Virus record (IMG/VR): IMGVR_UViG_3300023174_000100
Span: 1-64,000 of that record
Length of the DNA: 64,000 nucleotides
From: a virus
Direction: 5' to 3' (one strand)
The notes below the pieces were generated by a model. The model searched no databases and was not told where the DNA came from. It saw nothing but the letters and a program-made list of their open reading frames with translations. The translations under genes were made by a program, and so were the position numbers. The first letter of the stretch is position 1. The number at the start of each line of letters is the position of its first letter. This document shows, one piece after another, positions 1 through 21,431 of this stretch.

Positions 1-1362
1 ATCACCGGACCACAAGGTAACCAAGGACCAACTGGTCTTCAGGGTACAACAGGAGCACAGGGCAATCAAGGACCTACCGGATTACAAGGAACAGTAGGCG
101 CACAAGGTTTTCAAGGCCCTACGGGTCAATCAGGTAACCCTAGCTTTCAACCAGGCCCTCAGGGCAATCAAGGCCCACAGGGTGATACTGGCTTTCAAGG
201 ATTAACCGGCTTACAAGGCACCACCGGAGCTCAAGGAAGACAAGGCCCTCAAGGCAATCAAGGCCCTACAGGGCTATCTGGAGTAGGTTTACAAGGACCC
301 GCCGGCGAACCAGGAGGTACTGGCCCACAGGGAAGACAAGGACCGCAAGGCAACCAAGGCCCTACCGGCCCGCAAGGACAAAAGGGGGAGGTAGGAGTAA
401 CAGGACCTCAAGGATTTACCGGTCTTCCTGGTCCTAGAGGCCCGCAAGGATTTACAGGAGACACAGGACCTTCAGGCCCTCAAGGATTTACCGGTCCTCC
501 GGGTTCTACAGGCTCTACCGGCTCTACTGGCTCACCCGGTCCTACTGGTCCACAAGGTTCTACCGGCGCCCCAGGCCCTACCGGCTCGCAAGGATTTACC
601 GGTCCTCCAGGTTCTACAGGCTCTACTGGCTCACCCGGTCCTACTGGTCCACAAGGTTCTACCGGCGCCCCAGGCCCTACCGGCTCGCAAGGATTTACCG
701 GCCCTACAGGATTAGGCATTCCTGGCTCACCTGGTCCCACTGGCCCTACTGGTTCTCCAGGACCTGCTGGCCCCACCGGACCTAAGGGAGATACAGGCGC
801 TACTGGACTAGGTCTCCCAGGCTCTCCTGGACCTACCGGACCTACTGGCCCTGCGGGCCCTACCGGTCCCACCGGTTCTTCTGGACCTACCGGACCTACC
901 GGTCCTACCGGTCCCTCAGGAGGATCAGGCCCTCCTGGTCAGAAGGGTCAGAAAGGCGAAAGGGGTATAGGAGGTCCATTCGCGGCCTTCTCCGACAAAA
1001 GACTAAAAAAAGACATAAAGCAAATACAACCTGTATTAGAAGAAATATATAATATAAAACCAGTTAATTATTCTTGGAATCCTGACGAAATGAAAGGAAT
1101 AATCTTAGAGGTAAATAAAAATTCGTCTTCTTACAGAATACCTACCGATATAAATAATAAGGAAGTCGGTATAATTGCACAGGACATAACAGATGGGCTA
1201 AAAACAGGTCTTCTAAGAGAGCTAAAAATACAAGGACAAAAAGGAGTATTAGCTGTTAATTATGACAAATTATCTGTTTATAATTTAAAAGCCATACAAG
1301 AATTATATGATATAGTAAAAAATTTATCAGAAAGAGTTTTAAAACTAGAAAACAAAAAATAA
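1..1362 (+). CDS. Collagen-like (Gly-X-Y) fibre protein with C-terminal intramolecular chaperone (peptidase S74); 5'-truncated by the window edge
   Basis: Frame 1 is open from base 1 ([15 protein letters not shown]...) through about 320 codons of Gly-X-Y into [11 protein letters not shown]...VGIIAQD...VNYDKL...LKAIQEL, the S74 signature. The ORF-track entry 1090..1362 is only its C-terminus. Confidence 0.9.
481..701 (+). repeat. Near-perfect tandem duplication inside the collagen region (108-bp and 99-bp units plus start of a third)
   Basis: Units start with caaggatttaccgg at 481, 589 and 688. The first two differ by a 9-bp (one triplet) indel and one substitution. Confidence 0.9.
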
Positions 1363-11400: not shown

Positions 11401-11432
11401 TCGACATAGTTTAAAGTTAAATTTGAATATAG

Positions 11433-11462
11433 AAGCGAGGCCCTAAAAAGCCTCGCTTTTTT
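11433..11462 (+). terminator. Rho-independent terminator after MCP
   Basis: aagcgaggc-cctaaaaa-gcctcgctt stem-loop running into a T-tract. Confidence 0.85.
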
Positions 11463-11809: not shown

Positions 11810-12469
11810 ATGACTGAAAACACAGAAAAGAGAGTACCTAAAAATCCGGTAAAATTTGACATTCAATTATCTAACGACCAAAAAGAAGCAAAGGAAAAAA
11901 TTTTAACACACCCAGTAAATTTTATTTTAGGAAAACCAGGAAGTGGAAAAACGTTATTAGCAACACAAATAGCTTTAGATAAATTTTTTAGAAGAGAAAT
12001 AAACAAGATAGTTATAACAAGACCTATGGTGGCAACAGAAGAAATGGGTTTTTTACCAGGAACACTAGAAGAAAAATTAGAACCTTGGATTGTTCCAATA
12101 AAAGACAACATAACTAAAGCCTATTCTAAACAATCCGCCGTAGAAAGGTTATATACTGATAAATCTGTCGAGTTAGTAACCTTAGCACACTTTAGAGGTA
12201 GAACATTTGACGATTCTGTTTGTATTATAGATGAGTTCCAGAATTTAACAAAAGAGCAATTATCGATGTGCATTAGTAGACTAGGAAAAAATACAATCAT
12301 GATTTTTGCAGGCGATCAAAACCAGATAGATTTAAGACATAAAGAACAGTCTGCTTTTCACCTTATATCAGTTATAAATCAGAGTAAGTATGTAAATTGC
12401 GTTACTCTTTCAACAAATCACAGACACGAAGCTTTAGAAGATATATTTAAATATCTTTACCCTAATTAA
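11810..12469 (+). CDS. phoH: PhoH-family ATPase
   Basis: GKPGSGKT, ITRP, GFLPGTLEEK, FRGRTF, IIDEFQN and GDQNQID motifs. Confidence 0.95.
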   Translation: MTENTEKRVPKNPVKFDIQLSNDQKEAKEKILTHPVNFILGKPGSGKTLLATQIALDKFFRREINKIVITRPMVATEEMGFLPGTLEEKLEPWIVPIKDNITKAYSKQSAVERLYTDKSVELVTLAHFRGRTFDDSVCIIDEFQNLTKEQLSMCISRLGKNTIMIFAGDQNQIDLRHKEQSAFHLISVINQSKYVNCVTLSTNHRHEALEDIFKYLYPN

Positions 12470-12477
12470 TTTCATTT

Positions 12478-14787
12478 ATGACAATTAAGTTTTATATTGG
12501 TTATTACTCTCATTTTGATGCCGGCGGAGATAATTTCGCCGGCACTGAATGGGCCCTACGTCACCTCTCAGAAGCTTTATTTGATTTAGGGCACTCTGTG
12601 TTTATTACAGGGGAAATAGTTCAGGAGAGTGTCTTGAATGGCGTTATTTACACAAATAATTACAATACAAGAGCGGACATTTTAATTGCTTTAAATTATA
12701 CACATTACATTGATTTAATTTCAGAGGATTCATATGATTATTCTTATTTTTGGATTCACAATGTAGATACGTTTTTTTACAATTACTATAAAGGTAAAGA
12801 AATAAAAGAATTAGAAAGTAGGGTATTCAATCATCCTAAATTTAAAAGTGTTATATGTGTATCTAAATATCATCAGAAAGAATTTAATTTAAACTTTGAA
12901 CATGTAAATTCTATCATTTCTTATAATGCGGTAAAAACAATAGAAAAATCAAATAAATTAAAAATTGATGATTCTTACATTTATATATCACATGCAGAAA
13001 GAGGATTAAATGAAATTTTAATACATTGGAGAAAGATTTTATATTATAAGCCAATGTCAAAATTATACATATTATCGCCTAAATATGGAGAAGATTTTTA
13101 TAATAAACATTTCTCTCATGTAAAAAACACTTATAATAATGTATATTTTTATGGTTCTCTAAAAAAAGATGAATTAATTTCTTTTGCAAGTAATAAAAAG
13201 TATTGGCTATATCCTTCAAATTATGATGAAACATTTTGTGTATCTGCTGTTGAAATGCAAATGTTAGGATTAATTCCAATTACTAGATTAAGAGCCGGAT
13301 TAAAGGAAACTGTTTTTAATTATATAGATTTTGATTCTTGGCTATCTTGTGTAACTAGTAATCAAAATTTTACTATTTTAAAAAATTCTTTCAATAGTAA
13401 TATTTCAATTGATGATTTTAAACCTATTGTTGTTGCTAATAAACTAATTCATAAAATAATGGAAAATATTGATAATAAAATTAATGAAGTCATGGATAAT
13501 AAATTGAATATCGATGCTGTATATGTAATATCTTTTGATGTTTCTGATGATGCAGTAAATAAGTACACCGCGGAATTTAATAAGCTAGGAATTATACCAA
13601 AACAATTTCATATATTTAAAGCTGTAGATGGTAGAAATCCTAAAGTAAATTTTAAATGGAATCTTTTCAATAATTGGAAAATAGATAATCATAGTAATTC
13701 ATATTATAATCGGGACATTTTACCAGGAGAAATTGGATGTGCTTTATCTCATTTGTCTGTTTGGAAAGATGCAAAAAGTAAAAATTATGAAAGCATCTTA
13801 ATATTAGAGGATGATTTTAAAGTAGATAAAGAGTTCCCCGCGAAAGAAATAGCATTATATGAGTGGGGCTTATTGTATTTAGGAAGGCAAAAAATCGGCG
13901 GGGACACAGACATACAAAATGAATTATATGTATCACCAGGATACTCATGGTTATCACATGCTTATATGTTATCTAAAACAGGATTAGATAGAATATTAGA
14001 ACAAAATCTAGAATCATATATCATGCCTTTAGATGATTTCTTAGCATGTACATATTCAATAAACATAGAAAGATCAGATTTAGGACATATATGGAGAGAC
14101 ATGATTGCATATGCTTTAAAAGAATCTATAGTAAGTCAAACAAGTAATAATAAAACAAGCAAAACAGAAAGTAATTCATTTGCATCTCCTATATATTTAA
14201 CAAAAGATTTTAATGCATGGTCAACATCTTTTATAAATCCTGCATTGAAAAATAAAGAATATGATTTAATTGTAGATGAACCTATACCTGATGTCCTACA
14301 TTTACATGCTTTCAAGAATAACTTTTGCAATGAAGTCATAAGATTAGCAGAAGATTGTGGAAAATGGACAAAAGATAGACATTATTTTTATCCAACTCAT
14401 GACATGCTAATCAATGAATTTCAATTACATGATGCTTATGACATGTTTTTAAATGAGTACATATATCCATTAATAAAATCTAATTTTGTATTAACTGGAG
14501 AAAAATGGAAAAAATTTAGCTCTGAAAACTTTATTATAAAATACACCCCGGAAAATCAAGGACATCTATCACTACACCACGATGATTCCGCATTCTCTAC
14601 CGTTCTTACCTTAAACGAAGACTTTGAAGGAGGAGGTACCTGGTTCTCAAAACAAAAAGCACTAGTCAAAGGAACTACAGGAGAAATTACTATCCATCCG
14701 GGTCAAATAACGCATAGACACGGAGCTAGACCCGTTTTATCCGGAACTAGATATGTCCTTGTTTCATTTATTAGACAGGTATATTAA
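12478..14787 (+). CDS. Three-domain enzyme: GT4-like glycosyltransferase + GT25 glycosyltransferase + PLOD-type 2OG-Fe(II) lysyl-hydroxylase-like domain
   Basis: GT4: AGTE, HAERGL, YPSNYDETFCVSAVE. GT25: AVDG, GEIGCALSH, LILEDD, LLYLGR, HAYMLS, MPLDDFL. Oxygenase: EPIPDV, NFIIKYTPENQ, LHHDDS, FEGGGTWF, HPGQITHRHG, GTRYVLVSF. Confidence 0.88.
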   Translation: MTIKFYIGYYSHFDAGGDNFAGTEWALRHLSEALFDLGHSVFITGEIVQESVLNGVIYTNNYNTRADILIALNYTHYIDLISEDSYDYSYFWIHNVDTFFYNYYKGKEIKELESRVFNHPKFKSVICVSKYHQKEFNLNFEHVNSIISYNAVKTIEKSNKLKIDDSYIYISHAERGLNEILIHWRKILYYKPMSKLYILSPKYGEDFYNKHFSHVKNTYNNVYFYGSLKKDELISFASNKKYWLYPSNYDETFCVSAVEMQMLGLIPITRLRAGLKETVFNYIDFDSWLSCVTSNQNFTILKNSFNSNISIDDFKPIVVANKLIHKIMENIDNKINEVMDNKLNIDAVYVISFDVSDDAVNKYTAEFNKLGIIPKQFHIFKAVDGRNPKVNFKWNLFNNWKIDNHSNSYYNRDILPGEIGCALSHLSVWKDAKSKNYESILILEDDFKVDKEFPAKEIALYEWGLLYLGRQKIGGDTDIQNELYVSPGYSWLSHAYMLSKTGLDRILEQNLESYIMPLDDFLACTYSINIERSDLGHIWRDMIAYALKESIVSQTSNNKTSKTESNSFASPIYLTKDFNAWSTSFINPALKNKEYDLIVDEPIPDVLHLHAFKNNFCNEVIRLAEDCGKWTKDRHYFYPTHDMLINEFQLHDAYDMFLNEYIYPLIKSNFVLTGEKWKKFSSENFIIKYTPENQGHLSLHHDDSAFSTVLTLNEDFEGGGTWFSKQKALVKGTTGEITIHPGQITHRHGARPVLSGTRYVLVSFIRQVY

Positions 14788-14842: not shown

Positions 14843-16003
14843 ATGGCAGTTCATATACCTATTTGGCCTGGAAGCGGTAGTGCAGTATCTGGATCTACTC
14901 CTTTTGGTATTTTCGATAAAGATATTAATTTTCAAAATGACGCGCCCAAAGTAGCCGTATGGTGCGCAAGAAGACTTGGATATCCTTTAACTGATATAGA
15001 ATTACAAGATATAAATTTTTACACTGCTTTCGAAGAGGCTATTTCGGAGTATAGCAATCAAGTCAATGCTCACTCCGCAAAAGACAATATATTAGGATTA
15101 ATGGGATTCAATACGGGTTCCCTTAGATTAGAAAAAGAACTAGTAACAAATTCAATAGCAGGTATTTTAGAAATATCCGCTGAATATGGTACGGAAGTGG
15201 GAGTAGGAGGTAGAACTACATTTTATACAGGCTCTATACTAGTAAAAGAAGGAAAACAAGTATATAGCTTACTAGACCCTACTAGAGTTTCATTAGAGTC
15301 CGGCAATCCTGCTACAGACAAGTTCGTAATAAGAAAAATGTTCCACAATGCTCCGCCTGCTATTGTAAAATATTTTGACCCGTTTGTAGGAACAGGTTTA
15401 GGTACTCAAAACTTACTAGACCAGTTTGGATTTGGTAATTATAGCCCTGGAGTTAATTTCTTATTGATGCCTTTACATCACGATATTCTTAGGATGCAGG
15501 CCATAGAATTTAATGACCAAATAAGAAAATCTGCATACGGTTTTGAAATTATAAACAATAGAATTCGTATATTTCCTACTCCTGCAAAAGAATATAAGAT
15601 TTGGTTTGAGTATACTTTAGATTCCGAGTATAAAAATGCAAATAGAGGAGGAAAAGGTAAAATTAATAGTCACGCTACAATACCTTATTTTACCTTACCT
15701 TATTCTAGCATAAATGATATAGGTAAGCAATGGATAAAAAAATATACTCTAGTTTTATCTAAAGAAATGTTAGCTTACGTTAGAGGAAAGTATAAGACAT
15801 TACCCGGATTAGAAGATGAGATTACCCTAAATACAGAAGATTTAATGTATTCGGTAAATGAAGAGAAACAAAGGCTAATTGATGTACTTAGAATAGAATT
15901 AGATCAATTTAGTCGACAATCTCAACTAGAAAGAAAAATGGCTGAATCGGAAGCTCACGAAAAATTCTTATCTGTAATTCCTCTTAAAATATACATAGGA
16001 TAA
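14843..16003 (+). CDS. Neck protein (T4 gp13-like)
   Basis: RRLGYPLTDIEL, WIKKYTLVLSKEMLAYVRGKY and C-terminal PLKIYIG. Confidence 0.85.
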   Translation: MAVHIPIWPGSGSAVSGSTPFGIFDKDINFQNDAPKVAVWCARRLGYPLTDIELQDINFYTAFEEAISEYSNQVNAHSAKDNILGLMGFNTGSLRLEKELVTNSIAGILEISAEYGTEVGVGGRTTFYTGSILVKEGKQVYSLLDPTRVSLESGNPATDKFVIRKMFHNAPPAIVKYFDPFVGTGLGTQNLLDQFGFGNYSPGVNFLLMPLHHDILRMQAIEFNDQIRKSAYGFEIINNRIRIFPTPAKEYKIWFEYTLDSEYKNANRGGKGKINSHATIPYFTLPYSSINDIGKQWIKKYTLVLSKEMLAYVRGKYKTLPGLEDEITLNTEDLMYSVNEEKQRLIDVLRIELDQFSRQSQLERKMAESEAHEKFLSVIPLKIYIG

Positions 16004-19300: not shown

Positions 19301-19873
19301 ATGGCATTTGAATATAAACCATTTGAATATTTTAACCCTAAGCAGCAGATGAGATACGTACTCTTCCTGACTAACGTCGGAGTACCTATTCCTACTTATA
19401 TGGTTAAAACAGCAGACAGACCCTCTATAGACCAAAACCCAGTAACTGTAGACTATGTAAATACAGAATTTAAGGTAAAAGGAAAATCTAGATGGCAAGA
19501 TATAGCAGTGACACTCTATGATCCTATTGAAGCTAATGGAGCAAAATTACTTCATGATTGGATAAGTCTTTTCCACCATAATTCAGGATTAAATCAATCA
19601 CCGGCAGGGAGAACTCCGGGTCTTTTAACTCCAGGTGAAGATGGTTTCATCCATGAATATAAGAGAACGCTTACATTTCAAGCACTTACTCCTCATGGTG
19701 ACGTAGCTGATACTTTTACTCTGTACGGCTCTTTTGTCGCAGATGCTAAATGGGGTAACATGGACTTATCATCTGATGATTTAAATATGTTGGATTTAAC
19801 AATCACTTATGATTATGCAGTGATGGATCCCACTAAAAACAAAGTTGTTACTACCGGAAAGGTAGACGCATAA
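19301..19873 (+). CDS. Tail tube protein (gp19-like), paralogue 1, probably the major tube protein
   Basis: Follows sheath; KGKSRWQDIAVTLYDP, WGNMDLS, LTITYDYA; followed by a strong hairpin. Confidence 0.88.
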   Translation: MAFEYKPFEYFNPKQQMRYVLFLTNVGVPIPTYMVKTADRPSIDQNPVTVDYVNTEFKVKGKSRWQDIAVTLYDPIEANGAKLLHDWISLFHHNSGLNQSPAGRTPGLLTPGEDGFIHEYKRTLTFQALTPHGDVADTFTLYGSFVADAKWGNMDLSSDDLNMLDLTITYDYAVMDPTKNKVVTTGKVDA

Positions 19874-19888
19874 ATATATTAAAAATTG

Positions 19889-19920
19889 ACAGAGGTGCAC
19901 TCATGCACCTCTGTTATTAT
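19889..19920 (+). terminator. Perfect 11-bp hairpin after tube gene 1 (terminator or mRNA stabiliser)
   Basis: acagaggtgca-ctca-tgcacctctgt followed by tattat (weak U-tract). Confidence 0.65.
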
Positions 19921-19929
19921 AAAACATGT

Positions 19930-20631
19930 ATGGGATTTACACATAAACCTTTCAAATATTTTAACCCAAAACAGCAGATGCGTTTTGAGTTATATATGCA
20001 AGCTGATCCATTTGGTCCCTTCTTCCCTACATACGCTATAAAATCAGCGGAAAGGCCTACTTTAGAAAATAATCACATTACAGTAGATTATATAAATACT
20101 GAATTTCATGTAAAAGGAAAATCTAGGTGGCAACCTATTACTATTAGATTCTATGATCCTATAGAGGATAATGGAGCTAAAATGCTTCATGACTACATAA
20201 ATAATTATCATCATAATTCAGGAACTACAGGCACATCATTCAATTTATTAACTCCGGGAGAGGATGGGTTTATACACGAATATAAAAGAACATTATATTT
20301 AAGATCTCTTTCCCCTCATGGTGATGTCGTCGATTCTTTTATATTAGTAGGTGCGTTTTTTGATTCAGTAAAATGGGGGGAATTTGATATGTCTAGCGAT
20401 GATTTAGTTCTAATGGAAGGTACAATTGTGTATGATTATGCTATGGTTAGAGGAAGTAAAATAAAACTTCCAGATGTAGAAGGACCCGGACTAGATGGAG
20501 GAGGGGCAAGTTTAGGAAATCAATTAAAAGATGCTGCTATAAATATAGGAAAAGGAGCAGCTCAAACAGTAGTGAACGCCGGTATTAGCGCATTAGGAGG
20601 CTTACTAGGGGGCGGCGGCGGAAGAAACTAG
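19930..20631 (+). CDS. Tail tube-like protein, paralogue 2, with Gly-rich C-terminal extension
   Basis: MGFTHKPFKYFNPKQQMR aligns with paralogue 1 MAFEYKPFEYFNPKQQMR; shared LLTPGEDGFIHEYKRTL. Start moved from 19903, which lies inside the hairpin. Confidence 0.85.
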   Translation: MGFTHKPFKYFNPKQQMRFELYMQADPFGPFFPTYAIKSAERPTLENNHITVDYINTEFHVKGKSRWQPITIRFYDPIEDNGAKMLHDYINNYHHNSGTTGTSFNLLTPGEDGFIHEYKRTLYLRSLSPHGDVVDSFILVGAFFDSVKWGEFDMSSDDLVLMEGTIVYDYAMVRGSKIKLPDVEGPGLDGGGASLGNQLKDAAINIGKGAAQTVVNAGISALGGLLGGGGGRN

Positions 20632-20663
20632 TTTAATTATATACTAATTTTACGTTTTTGACA

Positions 20664-20670
20664 TATTTAT
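20664..20670 (+). promoter_or_regulatory. Intergenic TATTTAT motif
   Basis: acaTATTTATtat, 12 nt before the ATG at 20682. Confidence 0.5.
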
Positions 20671-20681
20671 TATAAAGAAAA

Positions 20682-21431
20682 ATGGCTAAATCTACACCTG
20701 TATTTAGAGAAAAAAAAAGAGAAATATCTTTAACTTTAGATTCAACTGGGGCTTCTGAGTATACTCAATACAGGCCCTTTGCTTATTTTGAGCCAAAATT
20801 AAAAAATAGATTTGTTCTTTATTTGGATGTTCAAGGAATATTCATCCCTACTTATTTAGTTAAATCCGCAACTAAGCCAGGATTTAGTTATCAAAATATA
20901 GAATTACAATATATAAATACAAAAACGAATTTCAAAGGCAAAATGACTTGGGACCCTATAGAAATTGTTTTATATGACCCAGTAGCCAACCACAGATTTT
21001 CTCCAAGAGCATCAACAAATCCTTATGTAGATTCTTTATCAAGTTCAGAAGATGTAAGAAATGATTCCTCTGTTTTAGTTTATGAATGGATAATGAATAC
21101 TCATTCAAATTATTTAGAGGGAATAGAGTACGCTTTAGAAAAATACAAAAAAACCCTTATTCTTGAAACATTGATGCCTAGAACTAATGTTCAATCAGAA
21201 AGATGGGAAATACATGGTGCTTATGTTTCCGCAGTTAAATGGGGAGATTTAGATATGTCAGAAGATAATCTATCTACTATAACTGTAACAATTATGTATG
21301 ATTATGCATTAATAAAGGATGCTAATGAAAGAAAAGTAATTCCATATAATTTAGGAGAGGGTCCTTTTAAAGAAATAAAAAATAACCCTTTTTCAAGAGT
21401 ACCATCTGTAAGTTTATTACCGAAATCATAA
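20682..21431 (+). CDS. Tail tube-like protein, paralogue 3
   Basis: FEPKLKNRF, KGKMTWDPIEIVLYDP, WGDLDMS and MYDYA motifs. Confidence 0.82.
   Translation: MAKSTPVFREKKREISLTLDSTGASEYTQYRPFAYFEPKLKNRFVLYLDVQGIFIPTYLVKSATKPGFSYQNIELQYINTKTNFKGKMTWDPIEIVLYDPVANHRFSPRASTNPYVDSLSSSEDVRNDSSVLVYEWIMNTHSNYLEGIEYALEKYKKTLILETLMPRTNVQSERWEIHGAYVSAVKWGDLDMSEDNLSTITVTIMYDYALIKDANERKVIPYNLGEGPFKEIKNNPFSRVPSVSLLPKS

Follow-up and report, generated by a model that had tools for sequence, protein, structure and literature searches.

Does a bacteriophage carry, on a single polypeptide, the means to hydroxylate and glycosylate the lysines of its own collagen? This question is raised by a gene in the IMG/VR record IMGVR_UViG_3300023174_000100, a single viral contig of 98.6 kb with 32% GC, estimated by CheckV to be ~56% complete and belonging to a T4-like myovirus. 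The first 64 kb of this contig (64,000 nucleotides, referred to below as the window) were analysed here. An initial annotation had proposed that the gene encodes a lysyl hydroxylase (LH) fused to two glycosyltransferases (GTs) of families GT25 and GT4, which would act in turn on phage collagen. Hydroxylation and O-glycosylation of collagen lysines are textbook animal chemistry. In the human pathway, lysine (Lys) is converted to hydroxylysine (Hyl), then to galactosyl-Hyl (Gal-Hyl) and to glucosyl-galactosyl-Hyl (Glc-Gal-Hyl), by LH3/PLOD3 and GLT25D1/COLGALT1. So far this chemistry has been shown only in animals and in mimivirus, the one outlier that we know of, whose L230 protein is a bifunctional collagen lysyl hydroxylase and hydroxylysine glucosyltransferase (LH domain, PDB 6ax6). 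Our analyses suggest that the phage enzyme probably does hydroxylate and glycosylate lysines of the phage's own collagen-like fibre, a reading that is supported by comparative genomics, homology, catalytic residues and genomic linkage.

A three-domain fusion protein

The gene is a single open reading frame (ORF) with an ATG start, and it encodes a protein of 769 amino acids that has no signal peptide and carries the domains for all of the proposed activities on one chain (Table 1). An AlphaFold2 (AF2) model built on 72 homologues had a mean predicted local distance difference test score (pLDDT) of 90.7. Because the model has only two low-confidence linkers, residues 334-340 and 565-569, the protein is divided into three domains. 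The Pfam and Foldseek results bore out the same division, and the three-domain fusion is confirmed. The motifs quoted in the initial annotation were all found in the translation, both those of the LH domain (DEPIPDV, NFIIKYTPENQ, HHDD, EGGG, HPGQITHRHG and GTRYVLVSF) and those of the GT25 domain (GEIGCALSH, LEDD, LLYLGR, AYMLS and MPLDDFL).

The LH domain

Pfam returned a weak match to an OGFOD2-like family for residues 584-670. A sequence search of the Protein Data Bank (PDB) matched residues 592-765 to human LH3/PLOD3 (E 1e-21) and to mimivirus L230 (E 2e-17), and with a profile made from the phage LH domains these matches rose to E 7e-38 for LH3 and 1.8e-37 for L230, extending over the whole domain. 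Positions 1-186 of the profile align to LH3 516-713, including the extension that lies N-terminal to the beta-helix core. The next-best oxygenase in this search was a bacterial prolyl 4-hydroxylase (P4H), with E 0.013 over the last 60 residues only. The structural comparison by Foldseek gave the same result, with LH3 at E 1e-21 and the LH domain of L230 at a template modelling (TM) score of 0.88, a root mean square deviation of 1.8 Å and 27% identity. The oxygenase thus groups with PLOD and L230, not with the prolyl or nucleic-acid oxygenases.

Residues Y689, H700, D702, H748 and R758 are invariant across the 72 homologues, and their spacing is identical to that of Y814, H825, D827, H877 and R887 in L230, which form the Fe(II) triad and the 2-oxoglutarate (2OG)-binding residues of that enzyme (PMC5802723). 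The HxD...H iron ligands and the 2OG-binding arginine noticed at first reading are consequently intact.

A tree of 87 LH domains (a quick IQ-TREE run, with clades named from domain architecture, a few named animal PLODs and bacterial loci) placed the window LH in a phage/bacterial clade, with support of 90 in the SH-like approximate likelihood ratio test (SH-aLRT). Animal PLODs fell in a separate clade (SH-aLRT 81) together with the proteins of GT25-PLOD GT-LH architecture, the type found in Synechococcus phage S-CAM9 and the Thiothrix type. The window LH therefore lies outside the animal/giant-virus PLOD clade in a tree whose support is moderate and whose root is not established. It belongs to the PLOD-type domain family and, with moderate support, to a different subfamily from the animal PLODs.

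The GT25 and GT4 domains

The middle domain matched the Pfam GT25 family (PF01755) over residues 347-454 with E 2.9e-18 and 66.9 bits, far above the cut-off of 24. Residues 377-529 matched COLGALT1 at E 3.5e-11 in the PDB sequence search, and Foldseek matched the domain to COLGALT1 at E 6e-15, so that its description as a COLGALT-like GT25 domain holds. As a query, the domain was much nearer to COLGALT1 (E 7e-12) than to the bacterial lipooligosaccharide (LOS) GT25 enzymes (E 6e-3).

A study of the GLT25D1 ternary complex identified D522 as the catalytic base and E523 as the residue that anchors the epsilon-amine of Hyl (PMC12987934). In the window protein the catalytic Asp corresponds to D519 and the acidic residue next to it, D520, aligns to E523. 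E444, D446 and D519 do not vary among 72 sequences, and the uracil contacts of GLT25D1 are kept as G385 and C421. The GLT25D1 counterparts of the EDD motif, G385, C421, D519 and D520 were all essential by mutagenesis (PMC12987934). A TSKTES sequence (560-565; conserved as a TSxTE-like motif) lies 41-46 residues after D519, in a low-confidence linker; for comparison, the lid-loop Ser/Thr motif of GLT25D1 is STDE, about 47 residues after its catalytic Asp. The two-lobed COLGALT architecture is not reproduced in the window protein, which lacks the inactive N-terminal GT-A domain and has a GT-B domain in its N-terminal part.

This N-terminal domain scored 25.9 bits against Pfam Glycos_transf_1 (residues 210-281), marginally under the cut-off of 26.4. 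Its homologues carry PF00534, PF13439 and PF13692, and at one locus (L071), where the GT4 part is a separate gene adjoining GT25-LH, this gene is likewise above the cut-off. Foldseek placed the domain with retaining GT4 enzymes of the GT-B fold (E 1e-11 to 1e-9), the matches being the alpha-1,2-glucosyltransferase tll1591, PimA, MshA, BshA and glycogen synthase. The fold, these neighbours and an E-x7-E motif agree with its assignment as GT4-like. The E-x7-E and RGL motifs are kept in all three-domain forms (ten sequences in the alignment).

Linkage to collagen genes and the lysine signature

The candidate substrate is a collagen-like fibre encoded at the very beginning of the window. The truncated ORF contains about 105 Gly-X-Y triplets (nt 7-981) followed by a Peptidase_S74 intramolecular chaperone (about nt 991-1188), and it matches PF01391 at 7.6e-47, PF13884 at 3.3e-10 and tail-fibre PHROGs. 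All four lysines of the triple helix (aa 128, 262, 315 and 318) are in Gly-X-Lys-Gly, exactly as the initial annotation had stated, and Thr occupies 39% of the Y positions. No other GXY-bearing ORF was found in the 98.6-kb contig. An orthologue of this collagen in a relative that is 82% complete (L084) has the same C-terminal sequence, and there Lys is at Y in 42 of 127 triplets.

A single-sequence scan of IMG/VR with the enzyme gave no match, and an alignment-based search was needed, which returned 79 loci encoding a homologue of the fusion enzyme. Large GXY ORFs were present within 10 kb at 41 of the 79 loci, mostly 1-6 kb upstream and on the same strand. In at least eight divergent lineages the enzyme gene is directly downstream of a collagen gene with extreme Gly-X-Lys content. 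In the close relatives of the window (74-81% identity) the collagen gene is about 11 kb upstream, as it is here, and many of these contigs begin inside the collagen gene. After collapsing the loci at 80% identity into 16 independent LH lineages, we found collagen in the same record in 12 of the 16, compared with 4 of 45 IMG/VR contigs drawn at random among those of 12 kb or more (Fisher p 1.4e-6), a co-occurrence that had been named at the outset as a check on the collagen proposal. In the reverse direction, an LH domain was present in 5 of 107 collagen-bearing viral records sampled by their Gly-codon pattern, and therefore most phage collagens do without LH.

The collagens linked to LH are also distinct in composition. 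In the LH-linked collagens (8 lineage representatives) a median of 32% of the triplets had Lys at Y, as opposed to 0.7% in a control set of 113 collagen loci sampled regardless of LH (one-sided Mann-Whitney p 5e-5). We considered whether Lys at Y is a general property of collagen-like sequences and rejected this, as the controls do favour Y over X (pooled counts 387:111) but far less than the LH-linked collagens (944:25). Among the controls, Lys at Y was most frequent (57%) at a locus whose record, as later emerged, also encodes a three-domain enzyme of 754 aa.

The cultured phages with the closest major capsid proteins, Microcystis phage Mel-JY01 (60% identity) and Flavobacterium phage immuto (54%), have no such enzyme. 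Phage immuto has no collagen either, and Mel-JY01 has a collagen-like ORF (L377, 1-3 kb) of 202 triplets, nearly all GTS/GSS units, with 0 Lys.

At another locus (L200), a complete IMG/VR phage of 170 kb, a three-domain enzyme and a P4H-like gene adjoin a collagen of 709 triplets, mostly GPI units, in which there are 5 lysines, all at Y. Substrates as poor in lysine as that of the window are therefore found elsewhere.

Companion oxygenases

The phage also encodes a 2OG-Fe(II) oxygenase of the P4H type (PF13640; 195 aa), detected by tblastn and hmmscan at 64137-64724, 137 nt past the end of the window. It shares 42% identity with the oxygenase encoded beside the enzyme gene in other phage lineages, and probably acts as a prolyl hydroxylase on the same fibre. 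A PF20043 profile search of the phage's own genome gave no match, a kind of search that had also overlooked the PF13640 oxygenase found later.

In phage lineages of ~60 kb the collagen gene comes first and is followed, in some lineages after a gene for a ConA-like lectin protein, by DUF6445, the enzyme gene and a PF13640 oxygenase. The DUF6445 protein, encoded directly upstream of the enzyme gene (L049:9441-10004; about 35 loci), has an invariant HxD...H...R pattern, and the protein prolyl hydroxylases OGFOD1, Tpa1 and PHD2 are the best structural matches of its AF2 model (pLDDT 79). On the strength of this pattern and model, DUF6445 is probably another collagen-modifying oxygenase.

Proposed pathway and alternative explanations

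We propose a cytoplasmic trifunctional enzyme that would act on the collagen chains of the fibre ahead of triple-helix folding. In the first step the PLOD-type domain, with Fe(II), 2OG and O2, would hydroxylate Lys at Y of Gly-X-Lys-Gly; homology, intact catalytic residues and genomic linkage point to this step. The inverting GT-A domain of the GT25 type would then move a hexose from a UDP-sugar onto the new hydroxyl, as suggested by the features that it shares with human GLT25D1, namely the EDD motif, the catalytic Asp and an acidic residue by which the human enzyme holds the Hyl amine. In the third step, the weakest of the three, the retaining GT-B domain of the GT4 type would add a further sugar, most simply onto the first. 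The enzyme gene is probably expressed with the late structural genes, and the likely product would be a glycan-coated fibre. One can only speculate that this glycan contributes to stability, solubility, protease resistance or receptor binding. The central proposal of the initial annotation, that lysines of phage collagen are hydroxylated and then glycosylated, is thus supported by the PLOD-type LH domain, the co-occurrence with collagen and the enrichment of Lys at Y.

Several observations weigh against this reading and are brought together here with the alternatives that they favour. In human GLT25D1 a YW motif (Y494, W495) stacks on hydroxylysine (PMC12987934), and this acceptor motif is not kept; the corresponding residues are W-L in the window protein and Y-N in the family consensus. 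Because of this, the middle domain can be described as a GT25 member, and COLGALT orthology would not be implied. The collagen fragment in the window has just four candidate lysines, the richer N-terminal part being visible only in the orthologues of relatives. Four of the 16 LH lineages are without a detected collagen, all of them on fragments that are at most 22% complete. The remaining points concern the GT4 step and the nature of the substrate.

That GT4 adds the second (alpha) sugar is moderately supported and is the least certain step, and for the sequential version, in which GT4 extends the GT25 product to a disaccharide, we see about an even chance. In its favour, the slot of GT4 is occupied by a PLOD GT domain, the fold of the retaining Glc-Gal-Hyl glucosyltransferase, in the cyanophage, mimivirus-like and animal enzymes, and this equivalence supports the three-step model by non-orthologous replacement. 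Against it, bacteria encode GT4-LH fusions without any GT25 within 10 kb (L216, L222, L210 and L213), so that GT4 may act directly on hydroxylysine and not on the GT25 product. Perhaps, then, GT4 builds no disaccharide at all and puts an alpha-linked sugar straight onto Hyl at other sites, or onto Thr/Ser at Y (compare Bacillus BclA), for which the abundance of Thr at Y in the window collagen would be suitable. It might also be a scaffold comparable to the N-terminal GT domain of COLGALT1, which is catalytically inactive (PMC12987934), in which case LH and GT25 would still modify collagen lysines. The conservation of E-x7-E and RGL in every three-domain form argues for catalysis, and together with the equivalence to the PLOD GT slot it makes this alternative, though a serious one, rather doubtful.

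It is unlikely that the enzyme modifies lysines of some other virion or host protein and that the link to collagen is incidental. In its favour, stand-alone LH-type proteins of 255 aa are encoded among housekeeping genes in Thiothrix, Thiolinea and Leucothrix, so the fold alone is no proof of a collagen substrate, and in the window the enzyme gene belongs to the head-neck block and is separated from the collagen gene by 11 kb instead of adjoining it. Against it stand the position of the enzyme directly downstream of Gly-X-Lys-rich collagens in divergent lineages, the relatives without enzyme whose collagen is missing or free of Lys, and the lack of any further GXY-bearing ORF in the contig. 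Moreover, all five LH-bearing bacterial genomes that were tested encode collagen-like proteins, compared with 3 of 14 control genomes.

Very improbable, finally, is that the GTs remodel host lipopolysaccharide (LPS) or another glycan while the oxygenase targets nucleic acid or does something unrelated, as could be read from public annotations ('GT25 family, LPS biosynthesis'), from the 'DNA endonuclease' label of phrog_2297 and from the pelagimyophage literature, which takes phage GTs as modifiers of host O-chains and LPS (PMC7029224): the oxygenase scores 35 orders of magnitude better against PLOD than against any other oxygenase of solved structure, the GT25 domain is nearer to COLGALT1 than to the LOS enzymes, more than 170 retrieved clusters have it on one chain with LH, and on the profile and linkage evidence we rejected both the nucleic-acid and the LPS readings taken from such labels.

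If hydroxylation and glycosylation of fibre lysines is indeed the function of the enzyme, tailed phages, including cultured cyanophages, would put glycosylated hydroxylysine on their fibres, a new kind of virion modification with possible effects on how the host is recognised and how stable the fibre is. Many marine viral genes would be counted among those for virion maturation and no longer among those for host metabolism, as their present labels ('GT25 LPS biosynthesis', '2OG-Fe(II) oxygenase' or 'P4HA auxiliary metabolic gene') have it. A compact, soluble, single-chain enzyme could also serve to modify recombinant collagens produced in bacteria. More tentatively, Hyl-linked collagen glycosylation may not have been invented by animals and giant viruses but may be a toolkit common among tailed phages and bacteria, in which LH is combined variously with GT25, GT4 or PLOD GT, usually beside prolyl-hydroxylase-like oxygenases, and from which the eukaryotic PLOD/COLGALT pathway descends; we regard this wider idea as possible but rather less likely than not. 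If true, phage fibres and some bacterial collagens would bear animal-like glycosyl-hydroxylysine, and the origin of the PLOD/COLGALT pathway would become directly testable.

Comparison with known systems

The window protein resembles mimivirus L230 in being a virus-encoded PLOD-type LH fused to GT domains, with identical Fe and 2OG residues, and it is proposed to act, as L230 does, on the virus's own collagen. It differs in that it comes from a tailed phage that infects bacteria and not from a giant virus of amoebae, in having an N-terminal GT4 domain of the GT-B fold and no PLOD GT domain (no PF25342 match), and, with moderate support, in the placement of its LH domain apart from the clade of animal PLODs. 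With human LH3 and COLGALT1 it would share the combination of a 2OG oxygenase, an inverting GT25 and a retaining GT, as well as the target motif X-Lys-Gly. However, the phage enzyme is one chain without an endoplasmic reticulum context, its retaining GT is of the GT4 GT-B type whereas that of LH3 is GT-A, the accessory domain of LH3 is absent, and it has neither the inactive N-terminal GT domain nor the YW acceptor motif of COLGALT1. Judged from sequence comparison, it would work like L230 and like LH3 plus COLGALT1 and be an ortholog of neither.

The nearest cultured counterpart is gp218 of Synechococcus phage S-CAM9 (NC_031922; YP_009322466.1, 613 aa, L254:11923-13764), annotated as 'hypothetical protein'. 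It consists of a GT25 domain (COLGALT1 at 1e-19), a PLOD GT domain (PF25342 at 7.5e-47, the GT domain of LH3 at 5e-33 and mimivirus R699 glucosyltransferase at 4e-32) and an LH domain. Its gene directly follows a tail fibre gene, with a collagen segment (GPKGEKGQKG...) and an S74 chaperone, and two PF13640 oxygenases; Lys is at Y in 22 of 59 triplets of this collagen and at X in 0. Homologues are present in S-PRM1 and S-8S5x. Like the window enzyme, gp218 is a phage GT25 and LH fusion downstream of a Gly-X-Lys fibre and accompanied by P4H-type oxygenases, but its third domain is a PLOD GT between GT25 and LH, not an N-terminal GT4, and in the tree its LH domain stands apart on a long branch. 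As a cultured carrier, S-CAM9 is a ready experimental system.

Prolyl 4-hydroxylases, such as those of PBCV-1 and Bacillus anthracis and the P4HA 'auxiliary metabolic gene' of marine viromes, are likewise 2OG oxygenases acting on collagen-like repeats outside animals. They differ in that their target is Pro and not Lys, in that no sugar is added, and in their distance from LH (E 0.013). The role of P4HA is called 'cryptic' in a marine virome paper (PMC9301287). Hydroxylation and sulfation of bacterial collagen-like proteins have been predicted by Iyer et al. 2010 (PMC2938197), by oxygenase families other than PLOD/GT25. In agreement with the initial annotation, which knew of no such pathway in a phage, we found no paper on a phage PLOD-type hydroxylase or on hydroxylysine glycosylation in phages.

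Homologues and bacterial relatives

The enzyme family is large and almost entirely metagenomic, and where its members have any name it is 'GT25 family'. A phmmer scan with the LH domain gave 2517 clusters at E <= 1e-3 and 78 at E <= 1e-30, and a blastn search of cultured phages with the enzyme gene gave no match. Among 265 retrieved clusters, which are a biased sample, the architectures were GT25-LH (91), LH alone (63), GT4-GT25-LH (62), GT25-PLOD GT-LH (18), PLOD GT-LH (5) and GT4-LH (4).

LH-type domains are present in cellular genomes as GT4-LH and GT25-LH fusions, and the full cassette was found on contigs of Flavobacteriaceae metagenome-assembled genomes (MAGs). Stand-alone LH-type proteins were seen in Thiothrix fructosivorans (L219:9818-10585) and at about 25 similar bacterial loci, on chromosomes of filamentous Thiotrichaceae; no collagen was found within 10 kb of the stand-alone bacterial genes. 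The MAG chromosome of an Aliishimia sp. (L251) encodes a collagen-like protein of GEKGDTGAQ repeats, with Lys at Y in 64 of 158 triplets, and this genome also carries a GT4-LH-type gene.

Genome context of the enzyme gene

The gene order from the start of the contig is collagen fibre, terminase, portal, protease, major capsid, PhoH, the enzyme gene and the head-tail adaptor, followed by the sheath, the tube genes and the tape measure. The enzyme gene is thus located inside the virion morphogenesis module, as had been recognised at first reading, between the major capsid and PhoH genes on one side and the adaptor gene on the other (Table 1). Mel-JY01 and immuto keep the capsid-PhoH-adaptor order without the enzyme gene, the adaptor gene coming directly after PhoH or after one small ORF, and for this reason the enzyme gene is an insertion at the PhoH/adaptor junction.

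Table 1. Positions in the window of the enzyme gene, its domains and motifs, and neighbouring features
Feature	Position	Strand	Evidence
Collagen-like fibre gene, 5' end cut by contig end; candidate substrate	1..1362	+	GXY scan, Pfam, tail-fibre PHROGs
Terminator-like hairpin after major capsid gene	11431..11460	+	11-bp stem, 6 GC pairs, T tail
PhoH-like gene, 8-nt gap upstream of enzyme gene	11810..12469	+	phrog_170 at 1.2e-59
Gene for GT4-GT25-LH fusion protein (P0001)	12478..14787	+	ORF list, translation, AF2 model
N-terminal GT-B domain of GT4 type, aa 1-333	12478..13476	+	Pfam just under cut-off, Foldseek
E-x7-E motif of GT4 domain, E251...E259 (ETFCVSAVE)	13228..13254	+	Alignment of three-domain sequences
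GT25 (GT-A) domain, aa 341-564	13498..14169	+	PF01755, COLGALT1 alignment, Foldseek
EDD motif E444-D445-D446, equivalent to Mn/UDP-binding E435-D437 of human GLT25D1	13807..13815	+	COLGALT1 alignment
D519-D520, equivalent to GLT25D1 catalytic base D522 and E523	14032..14037	+	COLGALT1 alignment
PLOD-type LH domain (double-stranded beta-helix), aa 570-769	14185..14784	+	Profile against PDB, TM 0.88 to L230
LH active-site residues Y689, H700, D702, H748, R758	14542..14751	+	Invariant in alignments, L230 roles from PMC5802723
Head-tail adaptor/head completion gene, directly downstream of enzyme gene	14843..16003	+	phrog_211

No terminator-like site was found between the PhoH, enzyme and adaptor genes, and PhoH and the enzyme gene are probably co-transcribed. 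The transcription unit to which the enzyme gene belongs would begin at the hairpin after the major capsid gene. A scan for sigma-70 promoters gave fewer candidates than the shuffled expectation and was uninformative, and no tRNA genes were found in the window.

Elsewhere in the window, three consecutive tail-tube paralogues (phrog_4542), at 19301-21431, follow the sheath gene. Between 44488 and 59771 there is a co-oriented run of genes including GT4-like, GT2 and other glycosyltransferase-like ORFs, of which Pfam confirmed 4 of the 10 tested; this run may elaborate virion or host glycans.

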